Below are positions 10,863 to 22,566 of a DNA stretch of 58,108 bases, piece by piece. The translations under genes were made by a program, and so were the position numbers. The stretch lies in the sequence record DRR378314_108, one strand, 5' to 3'. The notes below the pieces were generated by a model. It was not told the origin of the DNA. It saw nothing but the letters and a program-made list of their open reading frames with translations, and did no database searches. Position 1 is the stretch's first letter. Each line of letters opens with the position of its first letter.

Positions 10863-11539
10863 GGGTGCTTGCCGCCCAGGACGTCGAGGCTTGGTTGAAG
10901 TAGGGCCCGCGCCAGCGTTTCTGCTTTTCTGGAATCCTGGCGCCGAATGGCGGCCAGTAACAGCTCGTGGTCTTCCTGGGACGGCTCGGGGAGCTCGGCA
11001 TCGAGTTCGGTCAATTCGATGGTCTGGGTCACGGAATGCGCAAAGTAGTCGTACAGTTCGGTAAGGGCAGGGTTGTGTGACGCGGCCACCAAGGCAGTGT
11101 GAAAGGTCTGATCGTGATGGATCCGACCTGAAAGATCGTCGTTTGCTTTCGCGCGCTCGTCCAGGGCGAGTGTCATTTTCTCCAGATCCTTCGCATCCCG
11201 ACGTTCGGCGGCGAGCTTTGCCGCCTCGGTTTCCAGCATGATCCGTACTTCGAGCTTGTCCCGCAGCTGGGCCCGGTTGATTCGCCGCAGGGTTTCTCCG
11301 GCATCTTTCGTCGCCCGCACATATGTGCCGTCCCCCTGGCGAGTCTCAAGCATGCCCACATGGACCAGTACCCGGACCGCTTCGCGCACGGTATTGCGGC
11401 TGACGCCAAGGGATTCCGACAGCTTCGCCTCAACGGGCAGTCGTTCACCAATCGCCCAATAACCCTGTTCAATACCGTGGCGAAGGCTGTCTATGGCGGT
11501 TTCAACGAGGGACCCTTTGGCGATTTTTGCGAGCTTCAT
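10859..11539 (-). CDS. GntR/FadR-family transcriptional regulator
   Basis: wHTH 'GERLPVEAKLSESLGVSRNTVREAV...RQGDGTYV' plus FCD domain. ATGA overlap with the symporter; start moved to ATG 11539. Confidence 0.9.
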   Translation of the reverse strand: MKLAKIAKGSLVETAIDSLRHGIEQGYWAIGERLPVEAKLSESLGVSRNTVREAVRVLVHVGMLETRQGDGTYVRATKDAGETLRRINRAQLRDKLEVRIMLETEAAKLAAERRDAKDLEKMTLALDERAKANDDLSGRIHHDQTFHTALVAASHNPALTELYDYFAHSVTQTIELTELDAELPEPSQEDHELLLAAIRRQDSRKAETLARALLQPSLDVLGGKHP

Positions 11540-11628: not shown

Positions 11629-13110
11629 TTAGGGCGAAGGGTGGAGGAACTCATAGTCATCGGGGTTAACGTCGCGCGTGGCTTTACGGTAGGTGAAGGT
11701 AAAGCCCGGCCAGTTGACTGTGTTTTTGCCATTGCTGTCCAGATACCAAGAGTGGCAGCCGGATTCCCAAACGCTGTGTTGTAGTTTTTCCTGAATATCG
11801 GTGGAGAACGCACGAAGCCGGTCGGGTTTGACGTCCATGGCTGTACCCCGGGTAGTGTCCAGCGTTTTGATGCAACTGAGCACGTACCGAACCTGGGATT
11901 CCAGCATAAACACAATGCTGTTATGGGCGAGGTTGGTGTTGGGGCCGTAGAGCATGAAAAAATTGGGAAAGCCCGACACCGTTATGCCTTTATAGGCTTC
12001 GGAGCCGTTTGACCAGGCCTCATTCAGGGAGGCGCCGTTACGGCCGGTGATGTTCATTGGCGACAGGAACTCTGAGGCGGCAAAGCCGGTGCCGACGATG
12101 AGCGTATCGAGTCGGTGCAAGGCACCGTCTGTGGTGATCACGCCGTCTGTAACGACGCGTTCAATACCTGTGGTTACCAGCTCGACGTGAGGCTGATCCA
12201 CCGCCGAATACCAATCATTCGATATCAATATCCGTTTACACCCGATCTTGTAGTCCGGAATCAGGTGCTTGAGCTTGGCCGGGTCGCGAACCTGGTGTTT
12301 AGCGAAACGTTTGGCCTGCCATGCGAATATTTCGAGGAGGCTGTTGAACCGCGTAAAGGCCAGGGCGCGACTTTCGTTCTTCCAGTAGATCAGGTAGCGA
12401 TAGAGACGATCCCAGGCCGGAATTTTCCGGAACAGCGTCTGTTCCCAGCGATAGAACGGTCGATCCGGTTTTGGCAGCACCCACGCGGCAGACCTCTGAA
12501 AAAGGCTAAGGGTTTTTACCGCAGGCACGATTTCCGGTACGAACTGGATCGCACTGGCGCCGGTGCCTATCACGCCGACATTCTTGCCAGTCAGATCCGC
12601 ACCATGGTCCCAGCGAGCGGAGTGGAAGGTCTTGCCGGCAAAGGTGTCGAGGCCGGGAATAGTAGGCCAGGCCGGCTGGTTCAACTGGCCCGTGGCGGTG
12701 ACGACAATATCAGCGGTCAGGGACTCGCCGTCGGTCGTGGTTACGGTCCAGGTCGTGGTGGCCTCATCGAAAACGGCGCTGGCAACTTCCTTTTCGAACC
12801 GAATGTGCTCTGCCAGTCGGTATTTCTCCACGCAATGCTGCATATAGCCAAGAATTTCGGACTGCAATCCGAATTTTCTCGACCAGTCGTGTTTTGGCTC
12901 GAAGGAAAAGGAATAGAAGTGGGATTGAACATCACAGGCCGCACCGGGGTAGGTGTTATCCCGCCAGGTGCCGCCGACGCCAGAGGCCTTTTCAAGCAGT
13001 GTAAAATTTACAATGCCGGCGTTTTGCAGCTGGATGGCCATGCACAGGCCTCCAAATCCGGTACCGACAATGATTACGGATGGCGTGTTACTGCGACTGT
13101 TCTCTGCCAC
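11629..13110 (-). CDS. Type I Baeyer-Villiger / flavin-containing monooxygenase
   Basis: GTGFGG, 'GGTWRDNTYPGAACD', BVMO fingerprint FxGxxxHxxxWD ('FAGKTFHSARWD') and a second Rossmann motif GTGASA. Confidence 0.9.
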   Translation of the reverse strand: MAENSRSNTPSVIIVGTGFGGLCMAIQLQNAGIVNFTLLEKASGVGGTWRDNTYPGAACDVQSHFYSFSFEPKHDWSRKFGLQSEILGYMQHCVEKYRLAEHIRFEKEVASAVFDEATTTWTVTTTDGESLTADIVVTATGQLNQPAWPTIPGLDTFAGKTFHSARWDHGADLTGKNVGVIGTGASAIQFVPEIVPAVKTLSLFQRSAAWVLPKPDRPFYRWEQTLFRKIPAWDRLYRYLIYWKNESRALAFTRFNSLLEIFAWQAKRFAKHQVRDPAKLKHLIPDYKIGCKRILISNDWYSAVDQPHVELVTTGIERVVTDGVITTDGALHRLDTLIVGTGFAASEFLSPMNITGRNGASLNEAWSNGSEAYKGITVSGFPNFFMLYGPNTNLAHNSIVFMLESQVRYVLSCIKTLDTTRGTAMDVKPDRLRAFSTDIQEKLQHSVWESGCHSWYLDSNGKNTVNWPGFTFTYRKATRDVNPDDYEFLHPSP

Positions 13111-13164: not shown

Positions 13165-14133
13165 TCAGAAGCGAATCAAGGCAGAACCCCAGGTGAAACC
13201 ACCACCGAACGCTTCCAGAAGCAGCACTTCGTTCTTCTTGATACGCCCATCTCGGACAGCCACGTCGAGGGCCAGGGGAATGGAGGCGGCTGAGGTGTTA
13301 CCGTGCTTGTTGACGGTCACCACCACCTGGTCCATGGACATATTCAGTTTACGGGCCGTGGCGGCGATGATCCTGAGGTTTGCCTGGTGAGGTACCAGCC
13401 AGTCAACGTCGGACTTTTTCATCTGATTGGCGTCCAGGGTTTCGTCCACAATCCGGCCCAGGGTGTTCACGGCAATCTTGAACACCTCGTTGCCTTTCAT
13501 ATGGACATGGCCCTTGCCAGCCCGGACCTGGTCAAAGCCGTCGCCAATACCAAAGGGGACGTGGAGCAGGTCTTCGTATTTGCCATCGGCATGGATATGG
13601 GTCGACAGGATGCCGGTCTCCTCACTGGCTTCCAGCACTACGGCGCCAGCCCCATCGCCAAACAGTACGCAGGTGCCTCGATCTTCCCAGTCGAGGATGC
13701 GGGAGAACAGCTCCGCACCCACCACGAGAACCTTTTTGCTGCTACCGGTCTTGATGAACTTGTCTGCCACTGACAGGGCGTAAACGAAACCGCTGCAGAC
13801 GGCCTGGATGTCGAACGCAGGACAGCCGTGGATATCGAGCCGTGCCTGGAGGATGCACGCTGAGCTTGGAAAGATTTTGTCGGGTGTGGACGTGGCGAAG
13901 ACGATGAGGTCAATATCGCTCGGCGTCAGACCGGCGGCTTCAATGGCCAAGCGAGATGCCTTTTCGGCCAGGTCGACGGTGGTTTCACCTTCAACGGCGA
14001 TATGTCGTTGCTCAATGCCGGTACGCTCACGAATCCACTGGTCGCTGGTGTCGACGATTTTCTCCATGTCTTCGTTTGTCATGACATTCTCGGGCAGATA
14101 GGAGCCCGTGCCGACAATTCGCGCGTACGTCAT
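13165..14133 (-). CDS. fabH: Beta-ketoacyl-ACP synthase III
   Basis: Intact Cys-His-Asn triad ('AVCSGF', 'VPHQAN', 'HGNTSAAS'), '[13 protein letters not shown]' and 'AFGGGFTWG'. Confidence 0.95.
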
Positions 14134-14322
14134 GTGCTAGCTTCCTCAGATGAACGAATCATTTCTCAGTTTCTTTCAATCATCCTATACCCTATTGATC
14201 GCTCGCAGCTATTAGCGTTTTGTCAAAGGTGAGGGCAATGATGCCTGCAGGAAAAGCTGGTACTTGGGCTGGGATCAGCTATACCTTTAGACAGGGCCAC
14301 TTGCTGTGAAGGAGTGTTGCTG

Positions 14323-15105
14323 ATGACAGACCTTCCCCTCGGTATGAAGTATTACCTGCTTATTCTGACCTCAAGCCTGATTGAAGACCTCAATGACTAC
14401 GGCGTCAAATGGATTGCAAACGAACCCGGTGTTGCGGTTCGTGACGTCGAGAATGCCTTTTTCTCAGCCCGGGCGATCGAAACGCGCTTGCCGGATGAGC
14501 CCGGCCAGGCAGATCCTCGGCTATGGCCGGACCTGATGAAGTCTATCCATACCATTCGTCGTGTGCTGGACGTGGTTGAGAAGACGACGTTTGATGCCGT
14601 GATTGCGGAGGCGATGGAAACCACGTCCGATATGGCCAGGGCGGACATAAAACAGGTTTTCGATCAGAAACGCGAAGCTGGGGAGGTTGATTTCCGGCTC
14701 CATGGACTTCTCAAGTCCAAACCCTGTCGGGACGAGCCAGACCCGGCCGTTCGGGAAGCGTTCATGCTCAAGCGTGCGCGGCGTTACCAGGCCTTTATGG
14801 GATTTGACGGAGCCACACTGAACGACGAGGAGAGCGTCATCGTGAAAGACGCCAAAGCTGTTGCCCGGCACATAATGGACGGAGATCGGGACAACAGGCG
14901 GATCGACGCGCTGCTTGTTATGGGGGCGGTGTTGATTGAGACTGCCAGTGTGAGAGTGAAGAGCAACATCCCCAAGCTGATCCGCGACAGTTTTGACCGA
15001 ATGGCAACGAAGGCCGCAATGGCGCTCGGTGCGATCGTTTACCGGGACGAATACCGTGAATTCAAGGCGTCCCTTGGCTTGGAAAGGCTGGATTCCGATT
15101 TGTAA
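14323..15105 (+). CDS. Hypothetical soluble protein, probably all-alpha (260 aa)
   Basis: Long ORF filling the intergenic space, with AAGGAG RBS 8 nt before ATG 14323; no motif recognised. Confidence 0.7.
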   Translation: MTDLPLGMKYYLLILTSSLIEDLNDYGVKWIANEPGVAVRDVENAFFSARAIETRLPDEPGQADPRLWPDLMKSIHTIRRVLDVVEKTTFDAVIAEAMETTSDMARADIKQVFDQKREAGEVDFRLHGLLKSKPCRDEPDPAVREAFMLKRARRYQAFMGFDGATLNDEESVIVKDAKAVARHIMDGDRDNRRIDALLVMGAVLIETASVRVKSNIPKLIRDSFDRMATKAAMALGAIVYRDEYREFKASLGLERLDSDL

Positions 15106-15763: not shown

Positions 15764-17146
15764 TTATTTCAGTACGGCAGTTTGCAGGAATCGCAGCAGC
15801 TTGTGGTTGTTCGCATGGGCGATGTTGATTCGTAAAGCGGACTCCCCATTCTGGTCAGCCAGCTCAAAAAGCTGGCTGGGCGCCAGAAAAATACCCTCTC
15901 CGGCAGCCTGGCGGCTGAGTGCCATAGCGTCCACGCCATGTGAAAGCGGGCACCACAGGTAATACCCACCCGTCGGGCTTTCGATGTTGTCCAGGCCGAT
16001 GCCTCTCAACGCCGACACTGCGTCGACACTGGCGTTGGCTACCCTGTCCCGCAGCCTCTTCAGATGACGACGATACCGACCTCTGACGATCATTTCATGG
16101 ACGATGCGTTCCGTGGTGCCGGAGCTGTTAACGATGGTCAGCATCTTGATGTCTGTCAGTGACGTGATCAGCGCCGGATTTGCGGCGATGTACCCACAAC
16201 GCAGGCTAGCCGACAGCGTTTTCGAGAACGTTCCCACGTAGATCACCCTGTTCAGCGCATCCAGTGACGCAAGATGGGGCGTCGCCTTTGGCAGGATATC
16301 GGCAAAGGGATCGTCTTCGATCAGCACCAGATCGTACCGTTCCGCCAACGTAAGCAGCCGGTGCATTTTCTGCAGCGACATGGATGTGCCCGTCGGGTTA
16401 TGCGCCATGGGTTGCACAAAAAACAGCTTGGGCCGGTATTGCCGAATCTTTTCCTCCAGCATGTCCAGATCCGGGCCGTCCGATTCCCGCGTTACGCCAA
16501 TGACGTTGGCTTTCTGAAGCTTGAGTTTGCCAAACATCGGGTAATACCCCGGTGTCTCGACCAGAACTGGGTCACTGGGTTGCACAAAATGGCGAACGAT
16601 CAGGTCAAGCGCATGGTTGGCCCCAAAGGTCATCAGGATCTGATCGGGACTGGCGCTGATGGCACGGTCCGTCAATGCCCGGGCAATGTCTTCCCGCAGA
16701 GCCTGAAGCCCTTGTGGTCTGCCATACTCGAAGTCGTCGGCGAGATCCGAGGTGCTGGCGTTGCGCTTCAGGTAGCGGCCAATCTCTGAACTTTCCATCC
16801 AGGTTGCGGGTAGGCGGCCGTCACCGGCACGGATTTCATAGTGCTGGTTCAACTGTTCTCGCAAGAGCGAAACCAGATCCAGTGCTTCCGTGACGTGTTC
16901 GGAATAGGGGATAGGTTGCGTGGGGTTGGCCGCCTGAACGTAGAAGCCGGACCCTCTGCGAGGGCTAATGTAACCGGTTGCTACGAGGCGATCATAGGCA
17001 TCCGTTACCGTGTTCTTCGAGACCCCATGGCTTTCGGCCGCCACCCGGATAGACGGCAGCCGAGCCCCAGGCAATAGCTGCCCCGTGCCGATCTGTTGAA
17101 TCAATGTGTCCGCGATTTGTTGCGCACGGGAGACGTCACCTGCCAT
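15764..17146 (-). CDS. MocR/GabR-family PLP-dependent transcriptional regulator
   Basis: GntR wHTH 'GARLPSIR...GVSKNTVTDAYDRL...RRGSGFYV' plus aminotransferase domain ('HNPTG', 'IEDD', 'GTFSKTL'). GGAG RBS before ATG 17146. Confidence 0.92.
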   Translation of the reverse strand: MAGDVSRAQQIADTLIQQIGTGQLLPGARLPSIRVAAESHGVSKNTVTDAYDRLVATGYISPRRGSGFYVQAANPTQPIPYSEHVTEALDLVSLLREQLNQHYEIRAGDGRLPATWMESSEIGRYLKRNASTSDLADDFEYGRPQGLQALREDIARALTDRAISASPDQILMTFGANHALDLIVRHFVQPSDPVLVETPGYYPMFGKLKLQKANVIGVTRESDGPDLDMLEEKIRQYRPKLFFVQPMAHNPTGTSMSLQKMHRLLTLAERYDLVLIEDDPFADILPKATPHLASLDALNRVIYVGTFSKTLSASLRCGYIAANPALITSLTDIKMLTIVNSSGTTERIVHEMIVRGRYRRHLKRLRDRVANASVDAVSALRGIGLDNIESPTGGYYLWCPLSHGVDAMALSRQAAGEGIFLAPSQLFELADQNGESALRINIAHANNHKLLRFLQTAVLK

Positions 17147-17159
17147 ATCAACTCCAAAG

Positions 17160-17195
17160 TGTACCAGTAATTTAACTGGTACAGTCCGTGGTACA
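17160..17195. promoter_or_regulatory. Candidate MocR operator: TGTACCAGT-N6-ACTGGTACA plus a further direct-repeat TGGTACA
   Basis: Perfect 9-bp inverted repeat at 17160-17183 and a direct repeat at 17189-17195. Combined inverted and direct repeats are typical of MocR operators. Confidence 0.65.
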
Positions 17196-17311
17196 CATGC
17201 GATAAGTGTCACTTGTCCATTCTAGCCAGCTGTCCTAATTTGTACAGGTGCACCGTGCAGGTGTACGCGGCAATAACAAACACAAAAACCACCAGTACGA
17301 TGGAGAACACT

Positions 17312-18367
17312 ATGAATCAATCGATGCGCCAGAAGGCTTTTGTCGGTCTTCGTCATGCCTGCAAAGGTGTTGTCGCAGCAGCCGCGATTTTTACCGGTGT
17401 GACCTCGGCCGCGGAGTTGCCTGAGGTAAACTGGCGGATGCAGGCGTTATGGGATGCCGGAACGACCCCTTACGAGTTTGAAAAGCGATTTGTCAGCCGT
17501 GTCTCGGAACTGACCGATGACCAATTCACCATCCGCCTGTTCGCCGGCGGCCAACTGGCTCCATCCGCTCAGGCGTTTGAAGCCGTTCGGGGCGGCGCTT
17601 TTGAGATGATGAAAACCTTTGATGGTTACGAGGCAGGCTCCATTCCCGCGTTCGCGTTCACCAGTACGATACCTTTCGGGTTTCCCGAATCTGACCAGTA
17701 CGAAGCGTGGTTCTATGAGCGTGGCGGACTTGAATTTGCCCGCGAAGCGTACGCCAAGGCAGGGCTCTTCTACATCGCACCGACCGTTTACGGCCAGGAG
17801 CCCATTCACTCCAAGTTTCCGATTAACACATTGGACGACGTTGAAGGCAAGAAAGGCCGTTTTGTTGGGCTGGCCAGCACGGTGATGGCGGAATTTGGTG
17901 TATCGACCACGCCTTTGCCGACTGCTGAAGTCTATCAAGCGCTTGAAAAAGGGGTCATCGACTTTGCTGACAGGGGCGACCTGACCGCCAATCTGGAAGC
18001 CGGCCTTGGTGAAGTGGCCAAGTACGTCATCGTACCCGGGTTCCACCAACCCACCACCGCGACCAGCTACGTTGCCAACCAGCGTGCCTACGATAAATTG
18101 CCGGATTCCTACAAGGCTGCCCTGGAAAGCGCTGCCCGCGAGATATCCGCAGCGCTTCGCCAGCATAACGTGGCCCAGGACGCCGTCGCCCTCAAGAAAT
18201 TTGAAGAGCAGGGCGCCGAGATCATCCACCTGGACGCTACTACTGTGGCGCAGGGTCGCCCCACAGCCATGAAAGCCTGGGAGAAAGCCGCTGGTGACAA
18301 TGAGCTCGCCAACAAGGTCCTGGACAGCCAGGTTCAGTTCATGAAGGAACTGGGACTGCTGGAATAA
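17312..18367 (+). CDS. dctP: TRAP transporter substrate-binding protein (TakP-like monocarboxylate binder)
   Basis: Signal peptide, 'NWRMQALW', 'AWFYERGG', conserved Arg in 'GKKGRFVG', 'EVYQALEKGVID'. GGAG RBS before ATG 17312. Confidence 0.88.
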   Translation: MNQSMRQKAFVGLRHACKGVVAAAAIFTGVTSAAELPEVNWRMQALWDAGTTPYEFEKRFVSRVSELTDDQFTIRLFAGGQLAPSAQAFEAVRGGAFEMMKTFDGYEAGSIPAFAFTSTIPFGFPESDQYEAWFYERGGLEFAREAYAKAGLFYIAPTVYGQEPIHSKFPINTLDDVEGKKGRFVGLASTVMAEFGVSTTPLPTAEVYQALEKGVIDFADRGDLTANLEAGLGEVAKYVIVPGFHQPTTATSYVANQRAYDKLPDSYKAALESAAREISAALRQHNVAQDAVALKKFEEQGAEIIHLDATTVAQGRPTAMKAWEKAAGDNELANKVLDSQVQFMKELGLLE

Positions 18368-18435
18368 TACCCACCCTGCCATAAAACAGAGCCAGCCCGG
18401 TCAGCCGGGCTGATACCGCAGAGTGAGGAGCTGTT

Positions 18436-18951
18436 ATGTCTATTGTTCAGGGCTACTGCAAGGCCGTCACAGGCCTGAACCGGTGGCTGGCAGTGTTGGC
18501 ATCGTTGTTGGTGTTCATCATGGTCGCCGTCATCTCCTACGAGGTGGTTGCCCGCTACTTTTTCGATGCGCCCACAGTCTGGGCACTGGAGTTGTCCACG
18601 CTGTTGCTCGGCCCCTACTTCATGCTGGCCGGCCCCTACCTTCTGCATACCGCCGGGCACGTCAATGTCGACATTGTCTATGGCAAATTGTCACCAAGGG
18701 CTGCGGCGATCGTGGATGCGGGGATTTACCCCGTTATCGGGTTCATTGCCTGCGTACTTATCTACCAGAGCATCCCCGTTGCGCTGAATTCCATTGAGTC
18801 CGGAGAGACTTCGTTCTCCTCCTGGAATCCCGCGATATGGCCGGCGAAGACCTTGATACCGGTCGCCTTTTCTCTGCTGCTGCTCCAGTCGATCGCCGAG
18901 ACATTGCAGGCGATCGTGCGAATCCGGACGGGTGGGGAGAGTGCGTCATGA
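18436..18951 (+). CDS. dctQ: TRAP transporter small permease
   Basis: Four TM helices with 'YEVVARYFFDAPTVWALE' and 'GHVNVD'. Confidence 0.9.
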   Translation: MSIVQGYCKAVTGLNRWLAVLASLLVFIMVAVISYEVVARYFFDAPTVWALELSTLLLGPYFMLAGPYLLHTAGHVNVDIVYGKLSPRAAAIVDAGIYPVIGFIACVLIYQSIPVALNSIESGETSFSSWNPAIWPAKTLIPVAFSLLLLQSIAETLQAIVRIRTGGESAS

Positions 18952-20270
18952 GCTCGACCTTTGTTTTGTCCGCGATGTTTATCTCCCTGCTGTTGCTGTT
19001 ACTCAGCGGGATGCCACTGGCGTTCGTTCTTATCTCCCTGGCGGTGCTTTTTACCGTAACGCTCTGGGGAACAGATGCCCTTGTTCTGTCGGTGTTGCAG
19101 ACATTCGATGTCATGACATCCGATGTGCTCCTCGCAATACCGCTCTACGTGCTCATGGCCAGTATCCTGCAGCGGTCCGGCATCATTGAAGCTTTGTACA
19201 AGGCCATGGAACTGTGGTTTCGACGGCTACCCGGTGGTTTGGCGGTGGGCACCATCGCAATATGCACCGTGATGGCAGCGATGACCGGCATCGTCGGGGC
19301 GGCCGTTGCGGCGATGGGCATTCTGGCACTGCCATCCATGCTCCGCCGAGGCTACGACGAAAAACTCGCATTGGGGACCATTTGTGCCGGTGGCACTCTG
19401 GGCATCCTGATCCCGCCGTCCATCATCACCATTGTTTACGCGGCAACCGCGCAGGTATCGGTGGGCAAGATGTTTGCCGCTGGTATTGTTCCGGGCATGG
19501 TGTTGGCGGGGCTGTACGTTGCCTATGTGGTGATCCGTACCCTGTTAAAGCCGAGTGTGGCGCCACGGCCGGAACACGTGGATGTGTCGGTCCGCGAAAT
19601 GTTTGCGTCCCTCAAGTCGCTGATACTGCCAACGCTGATTGTCTTCAGTGTGCTTGGGAGTATCTATGCGGGTATCGCCACACCAACGGAGGCGGCAGCT
19701 GTAGGCGTTGTGGGCGCTATGGTGTCAGCGGCTTTGCAACGTACCCTCACACCCGCCAACCTGAGTGCCGCCGCCATGGATACGCTGCGGGTGACCACCA
19801 TGATCATGTGGATCACCATCGGCGCCAAGATATTCGTATCGATCTTCACCGGTACCGGCGGAGCAGACTCCCTGCTGACGTTTATCCAGGATCTGGAACT
19901 GAACCGCTGGCTGGTGTTACTCGCCATGATGGGCATCTTGGTGCTGCTAGGACTGTTCCTGGATGAGATCGGCATCATTCTGCTGTGTGTGCCGGTGTTC
20001 CTTCCCATTATCAACGCCTTCGATTTTGACCCGATCTGGTTTGGCGTGCTGTTCCTGATTACCGCGCAGATGGCCTATATCACGCCGCCCTTCGGATACA
20101 CCCTGTTCTACATCAAAGGGGTACTTCCGGCCGGTATTGGAATGGAAACGGTCTATCGGGCCATCGTTCCTTTCCTGCTGCTTCAGATGATAGCGCTGGT
20201 GCTGTTCATGGTATTCCCGGATTTGGTGACTTGGTTGCCTAACCAGCTTTCCCAGCGCCTGGCGTCCTGA
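18948..20270 (+). CDS. dctM: TRAP transporter large permease
   Basis: 'GMPLAF', 'AIPLYVLM', 'GTLGILIPPS', 'GIATPTEAA' and 'ITPPFG'; ATGA overlap with dctQ. Confidence 0.92.
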   Translation: MSSTFVLSAMFISLLLLLLSGMPLAFVLISLAVLFTVTLWGTDALVLSVLQTFDVMTSDVLLAIPLYVLMASILQRSGIIEALYKAMELWFRRLPGGLAVGTIAICTVMAAMTGIVGAAVAAMGILALPSMLRRGYDEKLALGTICAGGTLGILIPPSIITIVYAATAQVSVGKMFAAGIVPGMVLAGLYVAYVVIRTLLKPSVAPRPEHVDVSVREMFASLKSLILPTLIVFSVLGSIYAGIATPTEAAAVGVVGAMVSAALQRTLTPANLSAAAMDTLRVTTMIMWITIGAKIFVSIFTGTGGADSLLTFIQDLELNRWLVLLAMMGILVLLGLFLDEIGIILLCVPVFLPIINAFDFDPIWFGVLFLITAQMAYITPPFGYTLFYIKGVLPAGIGMETVYRAIVPFLLLQMIALVLFMVFPDLVTWLPNQLSQRLAS

Positions 20271-20293
20271 CAAACGTAATGGAGATTCTCTCA

Positions 20294-21565
20294 ATGCACA
20301 CTCAAAACTCCCGTATATCCGGCTTTCACAAGCTGTCGATGTCGGAACGGCTCAACAAGGTCATGGAAGTAACCGGTCTGGGTCGGGATATGGAAGCACA
20401 ACTCTCGAATACCGGAAATCTGGATGCTGCCGTTGTCGACGCCATGATCGAAAACGCCGTCGGCACCATGAACATCCCACTGGGCGTTGCCACCAACATG
20501 ATTGTTGATGGCGAGGATGTTCTTATTCCGATGGCAACCGAGGAATCCTCGGTGGTTGCTGCGGTTTGCAACGCTGCGAGGCAGTGTCGTGACTCCGGCG
20601 GATTTGTTACCTCGTTGTCCGGATCGCTGATGATTGCGCAGGTGCAGCTCATAGAGGTCAGTAATCCCGAATTCGCACGCCTTCAGATTCTTGAGAACAA
20701 AGACAGGATTCGAGAAGTCTGCGACCAGACCGACCCGGTTCTGCTGAAACATGGTGGCGGGTATCGAGACCTGGAAGTCAGGGTACTCGAAGGGGGGCGC
20801 AACGGACCCATGGTCATTACCCATCTGATCGTCGATACCCGCGATGCAATGGGCGCCAATGCCGTCAACTCCATGGCAGAAGCAGTGGCGCCTTTGATCG
20901 CGGAATGGACCGGCGGCAAGACGTATCTCCGGATTCTGTCCAACCTTGCCGATCGCCGCCTCGCCAGGGCCAGGGCCACTTGGTCGTTGGACGCCATTGG
21001 TGGGGAGTCTGTTCGCGAGGGGATTCTGTCGGCTTTTGATTTTGCGGATATTGACCCGTACCGGGCTGCAACGCACAACAAAGGCGTCATGAACGGGGTA
21101 AGTGCCGTTGTGTTGGCCACCGGTAATGATACACGCGCGGTTGAGGCAGGTGCTCACGCCTACGCCGCGCGGACAGGGCACTATCGTTCGCTGACCCGCT
21201 GGGAAGTGGACCAGAACGGAAATCTGACCGGGATGATCGAGATACCGATGGCCGTCGGGCTGATCGGCGGGGCGACCAAATCACATCCGACTGCACGCAT
21301 TGCGCTGGATATCATGAACATCAAAACGGCGGAAAAATTGGCCAGAGTGATCGCGGCGGTCGGGCTCGCACAAAATTTCTCTGCGTTGAAAGCGCTGGCC
21401 ACCACGGGCATCCAGAAAGGACACATGGCGCTTCATGCCAAGAACATTGCCGTGATGGCAGGTGCCAAAGGCTCGGAAATTGACACCGTGGCTAAGGAAC
21501 TGGTTCAGGGGGGCAAGGTACGGGTGGATATTGCTGAGGAGATTCTGCTGCGCATTCGGGGTTAG
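20294..21565 (+). CDS. mvaA: Class II (degradative-type) hydroxymethylglutaryl-CoA reductase
   Basis: 'SRISGFHKLS', 'MIENAVG', 'PMATEESSVVAA', 'DAMGANAVN', 'ATHNKGVMNG', 'GNDTRAVEAG' and catalytic His in 'GIQKGHMALH'. GGAG RBS before ATG 20294. Confidence 0.93.
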   Translation: MHTQNSRISGFHKLSMSERLNKVMEVTGLGRDMEAQLSNTGNLDAAVVDAMIENAVGTMNIPLGVATNMIVDGEDVLIPMATEESSVVAAVCNAARQCRDSGGFVTSLSGSLMIAQVQLIEVSNPEFARLQILENKDRIREVCDQTDPVLLKHGGGYRDLEVRVLEGGRNGPMVITHLIVDTRDAMGANAVNSMAEAVAPLIAEWTGGKTYLRILSNLADRRLARARATWSLDAIGGESVREGILSAFDFADIDPYRAATHNKGVMNGVSAVVLATGNDTRAVEAGAHAYAARTGHYRSLTRWEVDQNGNLTGMIEIPMAVGLIGGATKSHPTARIALDIMNIKTAEKLARVIAAVGLAQNFSALKALATTGIQKGHMALHAKNIAVMAGAKGSEIDTVAKELVQGGKVRVDIAEEILLRIRG

Positions 21566-21570
21566 AAGCG

Positions 21571-22476
21571 CTAACCGGATCCGAGGCTGGTTCGTAGAAA
21601 GTCGATAAACAGCCTGGCGCGGCGCGGCAGGTAGTGGCGGTCTGAGTAAACTGCATAGATGGAGCGTCGGGCAGGTAACGCGTCCAGCTCCAGCTCCCGC
21701 AGTCTGTCATCCGCCAGCTCCTGCCTGATGTAGGCGCGTGGGACCAGTGCGACCCCGAGGCCAGCCACGGCAGCATCAACCAGTACAAGCGAATTGTCAG
21801 CCACCAGGGGCCCGGATACGGCAACGTTCAAGGGGGTGTGACCCTTGCCTGCAGCCCCAGCCGGAACAAACTCCCAGCTTTTGGCATCCGTGCTGAGGCT
21901 GTAGATAAGACACTGGTGCTGCCGGAGATCGGCCACCGTTGACGGAATGCCAGCGGACGCCAGATAGTCAGGGGATGCGACAACAACCCTGTCGAGCGCG
22001 CCCAGTCTGACCGCAATGAGCGAGGAATCCTCGGGTGCCTCGATTCCCCGAATCGCGAGGTCGACCCCGGACCCAATCAGGTCGGTCAACTGATCGCTCA
22101 TCTGCAGGCGAATGGACAGCTCGGGGTGGGCCGCCCGAAAACGAAAAACCAAAGGCGCCATGACTTTCATGGACAGCGAGACCGGGCAGGCAATCACCAG
22201 TTCACCCGAAAGATGGTCTGACTCGGCGACCGAATCCAACAAGTGTTCCGTTTGCTCGATGGTCGACACGCAGTACTCGTAGAATCGCTCGCCTTCGTCG
22301 GTAAAGCTGATCGTGCGGGTATTCCGGTTGATCAGTTTCGAGCCGGTCCATGACTCCAGAAACCGTACGTACTTTGAAATAACCGCATTCGAACATTGGA
22401 ACTCGTCGGCAGCGGCTGTAAAAGAGCCCAGTTCGTAGATTCGCTTGAAATACTCCACACCCTTGAGGCGGTCCAT
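21571..22476 (-). CDS. LysR-family regulator (CrgA/DmlR-like)
   Basis: 'MDRL...GSFTAAA...ISKYV..LE...G.KLINRNTR.ISFTDEG' HTH and substrate-binding domain. Start moved to ATG 22476 (GGAG RBS). Confidence 0.9.
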   Translation of the reverse strand: MDRLKGVEYFKRIYELGSFTAAADEFQCSNAVISKYVRFLESWTGSKLINRNTRTISFTDEGERFYEYCVSTIEQTEHLLDSVAESDHLSGELVIACPVSLSMKVMAPLVFRFRAAHPELSIRLQMSDQLTDLIGSGVDLAIRGIEAPEDSSLIAVRLGALDRVVVASPDYLASAGIPSTVADLRQHQCLIYSLSTDAKSWEFVPAGAAGKGHTPLNVAVSGPLVADNSLVLVDAAVAGLGVALVPRAYIRQELADDRLRELELDALPARRSIYAVYSDRHYLPRRARLFIDFLRTSLGSG

Positions 22477-22566
22477 GCCGGCACTCCACATCAGATCACG
22501 ATCGATGGGAGGATTATACAGGCAAGCGCCGGGGGTGTGGGCCGAATTCAATCGCAGCGGCGGCGT

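Follow-up and report, generated by a model that had tools for sequence, protein, structure and literature searches.

A candidate mevalonate-scavenging module made of a TRAP importer, an NAD-type HMG-CoA reductase and a divergent MocR regulator

Why should a gene for HMG-CoA reductase (HMG, 3-hydroxy-3-methylglutaryl) stand at the end of a set of importer genes? The question is raised by a DNA stretch of 58,108 nucleotides from sequence record DRR378314_108 (hereafter the window), in which dctP, dctQ and dctM, coding for a tripartite ATP-independent periplasmic (TRAP) transporter, are followed by the gene of a class II HMG-CoA reductase (HMGR) and preceded by a divergent gene for a MocR-type regulator. 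The host appears to be a Marinobacter-like marine bacterium, HMGR homologues at 94% identity carrying the name Marinobacter sp. Pseudomonas mevalonii reportedly degrades mevalonate by means of the mvaAB operon, which codes for the HMGR MvaA and the HMG-CoA lyase MvaB, and an initial annotation of the window had proposed that the genes described here scavenge mevalonate as well. Comparative genomics supports this interpretation through the conserved synteny, the Asp-type enzyme and the gene content of relatives. We consider it likely that mevalonate is taken up by the TRAP system, oxidised to HMG-CoA in an NAD-dependent reaction and cleaved by a lyase encoded elsewhere, all under the control of MocR; the ligand, the direction of the flux, the co-transcription of the genes and the sign of the regulation are what we infer from sequence comparisons.

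The window HMGR matched over its full length the family of NAD-dependent degradative class II reductases (TIGR00532), well above the curated cut-off (Table 1). Its best solved relative was the P. mevalonii enzyme (1QAX, 4.5e-139), followed by 6DIO, 9V7Y and 6P7K, and the NADPH-type HMGRs of Gram-positive cocci scored far lower than these four. The source species of 6DIO, 9V7Y and 6P7K are our own assumption, that of 9V7Y being a guess. Eight P. mevalonii residues (E83, S85, D146, R261, K267, N271, D283 and H381, with positions counted along the printed alignment to 1QAX) were compared and all eight are identical in the window HMGR. Among them Glu83, Lys267, Asp283 and His381 are catalytic, and Ser85, Arg261 and Asn271 bind HMG. 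The cofactor helix had been described as of the Asp-containing P. mevalonii type and not of the 'YPSIVKRGGG' NADPH type, and the alignments agree with this description. The Asp of the motif 'QTDPVLLKHGGG' present in the window HMGR aligns with P. mevalonii Asp146 and with an Asp in 6DIO, 9V7Y and 6P7K, and it aligns with the Tyr of 'YPSIVKRGGG' in chain 5WPJ, which is from Streptococcus pneumoniae according to the available part of PMC12292504. In the same part of that paper this position is Asp in five aligned NAD(H)-dependent class II enzymes and Tyr or His in four NADPH-dependent ones, the change of Asp to Lys (D154K) in the HMGR of Ruegeria pomeroyi increased the activity with NADPH 53.7-fold, and the four top solved relatives (9V7Y by its guessed species) are treated as NAD(H)-dependent. 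By these comparisons the window HMGR is of the Asp, predicted NAD, type and nearest to the catabolic enzyme of P. mevalonii.

To what extent is the importer bound to this enzyme? One genome per species was scanned with an HMGR alignment and 80 HMGR loci were kept, their neighbours being counted by tblastn with the window proteins and with proteins taken from the loci. Orthologous dctPQM genes were found directly upstream of HMGR and on the same strand at 17 of the 80 loci, distributed among alpha-, beta- and gammaproteobacteria (Marinobacter, Limnohabitans, Hydrogenophaga, Acidovorax, Allopusillimonas, Castellaniella, Bordetella, Azospirillum, Thalassospira, Breoghania, Roseibium and several metagenome-assembled genomes, MAGs). 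At these TRAP loci DctP is 63-81% and DctM 59-89% identical to the window proteins, and the dctM match ends 0-92 nt from the HMGR match. MocR is found within 5 kb of HMGR at 33 of the 80 loci; at the 17 TRAP loci it is divergent in 13, an XRE-cupin regulator gene lies upstream of dctP in three others (L022, L034 and L050) and the remaining one (L023) has neither. The genes located 3' of HMGR are unconserved in most TRAP loci and more than 90 nt away, so that the conserved unit is MocR plus dctPQM-HMGR. None of the archaeal HMGR loci had importer, HMG-CoA-lyase-like (HMGL-like) or MocR neighbours in the tblastn comparison. The linkage also holds at a shorter evolutionary distance. Among 151 genomes of the family to which Marinobacter maritimus belongs HMGR is patchy, appearing in only seven, and in every one of these an orthologue of DctP is encoded about 2 kb upstream, on the same contig and strand. 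This orthologue was found in nine of the 151; of the two extra genomes, one has MocR-dctP at the edge of a contig, which breaks off just past dctP, and the other an orphan dctP. The synteny of dctPQM and HMGR seen in the window is thus a conserved trait, both across the survey and within the family.

The phylogeny of the enzyme adds a second kind of evidence. A tree of 81 HMGR sequences (quick maximum likelihood, LG+G4, SH-aLRT support only) is split with a support of 100 into a side of 28 rows, 26 of them from archaeal loci (two without a phylum label) and two from Brevibacillus, and a side of 53 rows, all proteobacterial but for a single MAG with the label Saprospiraceae. Among these 53 rows the HMGR is accompanied by the orthologous TRAP in 18 rows (window included), by another TRAP in 5, by a Liv-type ABC importer in 9 and by a Tct-type importer in 8. 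In the counts over the 80 loci, the other importers beside HMGR are a Liv-type ABC binding protein (Peripla_BP_6) at nine loci, a TctA-like protein at eight, TctC at two and a distant TRAP system, with DctP at 26-30% identity, at five. The orthologous TRAP label requires seven changes on the 53-row side, at least five of which are forced by starred branches. The window HMGR groups with that of M. maritimus (support 99), and these two form, with Marinobacter lutaoensis and three Halomonadaceae, a set with a support of 99, in which the three Halomonadaceae loci, the closest to the window outside Marinobacter, present a TctA-type importer, then HMGR and then HMG-CoA lyase. Judging from the tree, one enzyme clade keeps swapping unrelated importers at the same position, as would be expected if the importers carry the substrate of the enzyme.

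Some HMGR loci have other surroundings. Genes for a family III CoA-transferase and an enoyl-CoA hydratase adjoin HMGR in M. lutaoensis (L002, 11273-14118) and at L038, L040, L011 and L017, and could provide a side entry for free 3-hydroxy-3-methylglutarate or methylglutaconate. At the Roseobacter-type loci (L041, 1951-15439; L051 and L067) an HMGR of 58-60% identity comes after a different TRAP system (DctP 26-29%), with an FCD-GntR regulator, several short-chain dehydrogenases/reductases (SDRs), BKACE, a 3-hydroxyacyl-CoA dehydrogenase, an iron-containing alcohol dehydrogenase (Fe-ADH) and a fused E1 dehydrogenase as neighbours, and the same enzyme may there serve a pathway that is different or extended. 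Two Brevibacillus loci (L052 and L060, Firmicutes), with HMGR on the archaeal side of the tree, have it followed by a TctA-like gene and then by an HMG-CoA-lyase-like gene, an arrangement that suggests a separately assembled catabolic module.

What would become of the HMG-CoA? At 13 of the 80 loci, two TRAP loci among them, HMGR has an HMGL-like gene no more than 5 kb away. Such a gene comes directly after HMGR in Vreelandella (L006, 474 bits) and in the TRAP-type locus of Breoghania (L023, 370 bits; cut-off of NF004283, 246). A true lyase directly follows HMGR there, and this establishes HMG-CoA as the product at these related loci. The window itself had been described as devoid of HMG-CoA synthase, mevalonate kinase and HMG-CoA lyase, and it gave no lyase homologue by tblastn with a locus-derived lyase and no mevalonate kinase or HMG-CoA synthase in 39 open reading frames (ORFs) scanned with Pfam (34 of them of at least 250 aa, among 52 listed frames, many overlapping on the other strand). 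The FabH at 13165-14133 produced a sub-threshold match to HMG-CoA synthase only. Five genomes with TRAP-HMGR loci (two Marinobacter, Allopusillimonas, Azospirillum and Thalassospira) were searched for the lyase and for genes of the mevalonate and methylerythritol phosphate pathways. HMG-CoA lyase over the cut-off was found in four of the five and so was Dxr, Azospirillum being the exception in both cases, while mevalonate kinase and HMG-CoA synthase over the cut-off were found in none. The lyase gene of M. maritimus is part of a liu-type leucine cluster, together with genes for an acyl-CoA dehydrogenase, a carboxyltransferase, a biotin carboxylase and an enoyl-CoA hydratase. The distribution of the lyase and this cluster therefore give the HMGR product an outlet in the relatives, where the enzyme is not biosynthetic, because neither the kinase nor a synthase over the cut-off was found in any of the five genomes and Dxr is present in four.

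The three transporter genes are adjacent, in order and on one strand. Binding-protein-dependent TRAP systems act as importers. The DctP, with an N-terminal signal peptide read by eye, is placed by similarity in the monocarboxylate (lactate or 2-oxo acid) subgroup of TakP and TTHA0766. Its closest solved relatives were the calcium-lactate-binding TTHA0766 (2ZZV, 5.5e-59), 4PE3 and the 'ketoacid-binding protein' 7UG8, with TakP (2HZK) further down the list. DctP had been said to retain the carboxylate-binding Arg of this group, and the Arg of its KKGRFV stretch does align with the Arg in KLRVP of TTHA0766 and is invariant in all 15 aligned sequences, i.e. the window and 14 of the 17 HMGR-linked orthologues (the other three were missed by ORF calling and left out). 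According to the available part of PMC1839085, Arg177 of TakP makes a salt bridge to the carboxylate of the ligand and a cation bridges ligand and protein; the equivalence of the Arg was traced via TTHA0766 and not by direct alignment to TakP. The Asp in ADRGD of the window protein aligns with an Asp of TTHA0766 (DAADF), and its position may be cation-binding like Glu214 of TakP, as judged from offsets and not from a TakP alignment. The HMGR-linked DctP orthologues make up a highly conserved group of their own with invariant ADRGDLTAN and GFHQPTT stretches, for which the public databases give generic names only.

The regulator has the architecture expected of its family, a GntR winged helix-turn-helix (PF00392, 53 bits, residues 30-92) and a fold-type-I aminotransferase-like domain (PF00155, 130 bits, residues 154-476). 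All 30 HMGR-linked MocRs compared keep the lysine for pyridoxal phosphate (PLP), which is the K of GTFSKTL and K331 in the window's 482-aa frame. The protein stays below the NCBIfam cut-off of every named subgroup (PdxR, GabR, EhuR, MocR, YczR and PtsJ), the best being PdxR with 278 bits versus 320. The intergenic regions share an operator composed of the inverted repeat TGTMCC-N12-GGKACA and a third half-site, YGTHHC, 23-24 nt further on. The inverted repeat matches once in the 58-kb window versus 0.02 expected, and exactly once in each of 11 of 85 loci, always at the 5' end of MocR. When up to two mismatches are allowed, 19 of 29 loci have it within 350 nt of the MocR 5' end, the background being 70 matches in 917 kb, and the locus of genome G134 has it with one mismatch. 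In the whole genomes of three relatives (G001, G002 and G143) the exact operator is the sole site. The half-site YGTHHC at offset +23/+24 accompanies all 20 operator sites, one in the window and the others at 19 loci, versus 2.3% of random positions, and it is kept in front of dctP, of a TctA-type importer gene and of HMGR alike. Even L023, with neither MocR nor XRE-cupin, has an operator-like site with one mismatch upstream of dctP. Additional exact sites, two more in G089 and one off-locus in G134, were considered as further members of the regulon and rejected; they were treated as chance because the G089 site examined lies within a long ORF and a reversed control pattern gives 0-5 matches per genome. 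The XRE-cupin that takes the place of MocR at three TRAP loci would point to a metabolite of the pathway, rather than an amine, as the signal.

The following mechanism can be proposed. Periplasmic DctP would bind mevalonate, the invariant Arg holding its carboxylate, probably together with a bound cation as in its relative TakP, and DctQM would import it driven by an ion gradient. In the cytoplasm the HMGR would convert mevalonate, CoA and 2 NAD+ to HMG-CoA, to be split into acetyl-CoA and acetoacetate by an HMG-CoA lyase coming from elsewhere, for example from a leucine (liu) cluster. The divergent PLP-dependent MocR would bind the three-part operator, an inverted repeat plus one direct repeat, to control dctPQM-HMGR and probably also its own gene.

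Several observations weigh against mevalonate scavenging. A PLP-dependent MocR would be controlling the use of a substrate that contains no nitrogen. The nearest solved relatives of DctP bind lactate or 2-oxo acids and are distant (at most 203 bits), and no orthologue has a known ligand. One Marinobacter genome (G120) carries an orphan DctP orthologue of 69% identity (L086, 8011-9102), with no DctQ, DctM, HMGR or MocR detected by tblastn in the surrounding 15 kb and no HMGR in the genome at E <= 1e-60. The lyase is next door in only two of the 17 TRAP loci, and the evidence for a lyase and for a missing mevalonate pathway comes from the genomes of relatives only. Finally, Azospirillum sp. G004 (locus L013) has the complete MocR-dctPQM-HMGR set and no HMG-CoA lyase over the cut-off; this genome also lacks a Dxr match, and either its assembly is incomplete or HMG-CoA has a different fate there.

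The nature of the regulator leads to the alternative that survives best, in which the module serves another, related compound, a hydroxy acid or amino-hydroxy acid oxidised by this HMGR clade, and MocR senses its amino group. The effectors of MocR regulators are, in general, amines or PLP. Those with known effectors listed in the available parts of PMC5320631 and PMC8739950 respond to such compounds, the PLP lysine is kept in all the HMGR-linked MocRs, the DctP group is without a known ligand and the Roseobacter-type HMGR subclade is found in a quite different context, among SDRs, BKACE, a 3-hydroxyacyl-CoA dehydrogenase and an Fe-ADH. However, the eight substrate, catalytic and cofactor positions checked are identical to those of the P. 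mevalonii enzyme, a true HMG-CoA lyase comes directly after HMGR in related loci, and the replacement of MocR by XRE-cupin in three of 17 TRAP loci indicates that the module can do without an amine sensor. In vitro, mevalonate is a substrate for oxidation even by the Roseobacter-type enzyme, as stated in the available part of PMC12292504. On balance we regard this alternative as improbable.

A second alternative treats the adjacency as metabolically meaningless: the TRAP system would import lactate, pyruvate or another 2-oxo acid and HMGR would merely share its transcript. The ligands of the best solved DctP relatives and the existence of an orphan DctP orthologue without HMGR would fit such a case, but an accidental association is hard to reconcile with an order of four genes kept, with gaps of at most 92 nt, at 17 loci in three proteobacterial classes, or with the presence of DctP about 2 kb upstream in seven of seven HMGR-bearing genomes of a family in which its orthologue is rare (9 of 151). 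Besides, unrelated importer families occupy the same position beside the same enzyme clade and the MocR operator accompanies HMGR even where there is no TRAP system, all of which makes this explanation very unlikely. That the HMGR works in the reductive direction, making mevalonate for isoprenoid biosynthesis, can practically be discarded: the reaction is reversible, and archaeal class II HMGRs of 55-60% identity lack these neighbours and presumably are biosynthetic there, but the five relatives' genomes contain no mevalonate kinase and no HMG-CoA synthase over the cut-off and four of them have Dxr, the enzyme is coupled to a binding-protein-dependent transporter, and its cofactor residue is the NAD-type Asp.

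Taking uptake and oxidation of mevalonate as the preferred explanation, how does the module compare with known systems? The enzyme resembles MvaA as an NAD-type class II HMGR, oxidative in P. mevalonii, this being its best solved match with all the residues compared identical. Unlike mvaAB, the window has no adjacent lyase and HMGR is the last gene of a predicted TRAP importer operon under a divergent MocR. To our knowledge neither an importer gene nor a regulator of the MocR type has been described for mvaAB, and none was found in the literature searched. The transporter is similar to TakPQM, the 2-oxo acid TRAP system of Rhodobacter sphaeroides, and to TTHA0766 in belonging to the same DctP subgroup and in keeping the carboxylate-binding Arg, and differs from them in that the similarity amounts to just 108-203 bits and that the genomic partner is HMGR. 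The regulator shares with the MocR/GabR family (GabR, PdxR, EnuR/EhuR, TauR) the winged helix-turn-helix and aminotransferase-like architecture, the PLP lysine and an operator of repeated half-sites, and is set apart from the named subgroups by scoring below their cut-offs and by a target pathway with a nitrogen-free substrate. The HMGR of Burkholderia cenocepacia has reportedly been described as oxidative. Orphan oxidative HMGRs of B. cenocepacia, Delftia acidovorans and Bordetella petrii have the same top solved set (6P7K, 6DIO) and the Asp position in common with the window enzyme, but no gene context or physiological role is stated for them in the available part of PMC12292504. In our survey an Acidovorax (L010) and a Bordetella (L027), from the same families as the hosts of the orphan HMGRs, carry MocR-dctPQM-HMGR.

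In the literature searched there was no paper on a TRAP system for mevalonate, on a MocR-HMGR association or on a mevalonate solute-binding protein, in agreement with the earlier statement that no characterised mevalonate TRAP system was known. Mevalonate, HMG and reductase are absent from the main text of PMC5320631, a survey of MocR regulons, whose supplementary regulon tables could list this MocR group. A similarity network of bacterial HMGRs has been published (PMC13488460), with a neighbourhood diagram of Borrelia's own pathway only and the words 'transporter' and 'lyase' absent from its text. Import of mevalonate exists in several bacteria according to a 2025 paper (PMC12405511), in the available part of which the only previously known importer is a mutant mammalian MCT1 (F360C). 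The two enzymes and the route of catabolism are known, whereas a dedicated importer, the forms that replace it and control by MocR do not appear in the literature searched. A more ambitious combined claim, that dctPQM is the first gene-defined natural high-affinity importer of mevalonate and that MocR senses a pathway metabolite without nitrogen (mevalonate, mevaldehyde or HMG-CoA), is put forward here only tentatively, and we would sooner doubt than assume that both parts hold together.

The NAD-dependent HMGRs of proteobacteria that have no mevalonate pathway have been studied as enzymes, and the module supplies a testable physiological setting for them, pointing to mevalonate as a scavenged carbon source. 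If confirmed, a natural binding-protein-dependent mevalonate importer, together with the regulator that matches it, would find use in isoprenoid engineering, in cross-feeding consortia and in biosensors. A PLP-type regulator acting on an amine-free pathway is a clean case for study, and a MocR that does sense a nitrogen-free metabolite would represent a new effector mode for the family and a ready-made mevalonate biosensor. Under the same premise, the scattered distribution of the module, with its importers exchanged, would make free mevalonate a traded public metabolite in marine and soil communities.

The six genes of the locus were confirmed with Pfam and NCBIfam (Table 1). The order dctP-dctQ-dctM with HMGR following after 23 bp, as first annotated, is borne out by the domain matches and the refined gene starts. 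Read from the sequence, the dctM ATG at 18948 overlaps the dctQ stop as ATGA. The HMGR start at ATG 20294 has a GGAG 9 nt upstream and yields a protein of a length equivalent to that of the orthologues (422-424 aa); the gap to dctM is 23 nt from this start and would be 8 nt from 20279. No terminator-like site was found between dctM and HMGR. MocR probably starts at ATG 17146 rather than at GTG 17212, because the conserved operator falls within the longer frame, and this leaves a MocR-dctP intergenic region of 165 nt. The stem-loop between dctP and dctQ may act as an mRNA stabiliser or attenuator, giving more binding protein than membrane subunits.

Table 1. Coordinates of the predicted features of the locus in the window
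Feature	Position	Strand	Remarks
MocR regulator	15764-17146	-	longest frame 15764-17212 from GTG 17212; GntR HTH (helix-turn-helix) + Aminotran_1_2
Palindromic operator TGTACC-N12-GGTACA (predicted)	17160-17183	.	MocR/dctP divergent region
Third half-site TGTCAC	17207-17212	.	direct repeat of the first half-site, 24 nt past the palindrome
dctP	17312-18367	+	ORF 17213-18367; PF03480, 151 bits; ATG 17312 with GGAG upstream
G+C-rich stem-loop, dctP/dctQ interval	18392-18413	+	9-bp stem, 7 G-C pairs; no T-run on the + strand
dctQ, small membrane subunit	18436-18951	+	PF04290, 84 bits; GAGGAG upstream of ATG
dctM, large membrane subunit	18948-20270	+	PF06808, 282 bits; TIGR00786, 329 bits (cut-off 268)
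Class II HMGR, NAD (Asp) type, 423 aa	20294-21565	+	ORF 20279-21565; PF00368, 370 bits; TIGR00532, 468 bits (cut-off 260)
LysR regulator	21571-22551	-	convergent

The initial annotation had placed the importer and HMGR genes between a divergent MocR and a convergent LysR. Both regulators are present, but only the first was retained as a part of the module, because MocR and its operator are conserved at HMGR loci and LysR-like matches appear near HMGR at only two of the 80 (27-34% identity and more than 3 kb away). A nitroreductase gene was also discarded as a member, none of the 80 HMGR loci having a match nearby. Both genes flank the module in the window, on its HMGR side, and neither is matched at the two nearest Marinobacter loci. 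A search for flanking repeats that could mark a mobile element, between approximately 14000 and 23500, gave only short matches at chance level.

Upstream of the module, between 14314 and 15764, there is a 263-aa ORF (14314-15105) without any Pfam or NCBIfam match, followed by some 660 nt that contain no long ORF and lie in the stretch of lowest GC content (0.532) of the first half of the window. Further upstream, a flavin monooxygenase of the FMO/Baeyer-Villiger type (11629-13110, - strand) adjoins the FabH gene, and a GntR-like helix-turn-helix match was found at 11312-11491. On the other side, the region from 30044 to 56014 contains a large cluster resembling those for the catabolism of glycine betaine, dimethylglycine and sarcosine. 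It includes a PurU-like formyltransferase, a sarcosine oxidase alpha subunit (1072 aa), a DAO-family oxidase, a serine hydroxymethyltransferase and two DJ-1/AraC (GbdR-like) regulators, together with a Rieske oxygenase and its reductase, an Oxidored_FMN/Pyr_redox protein, a DUF3483/CCG Fe-S protein and the alpha subunit of an electron transfer flavoprotein.

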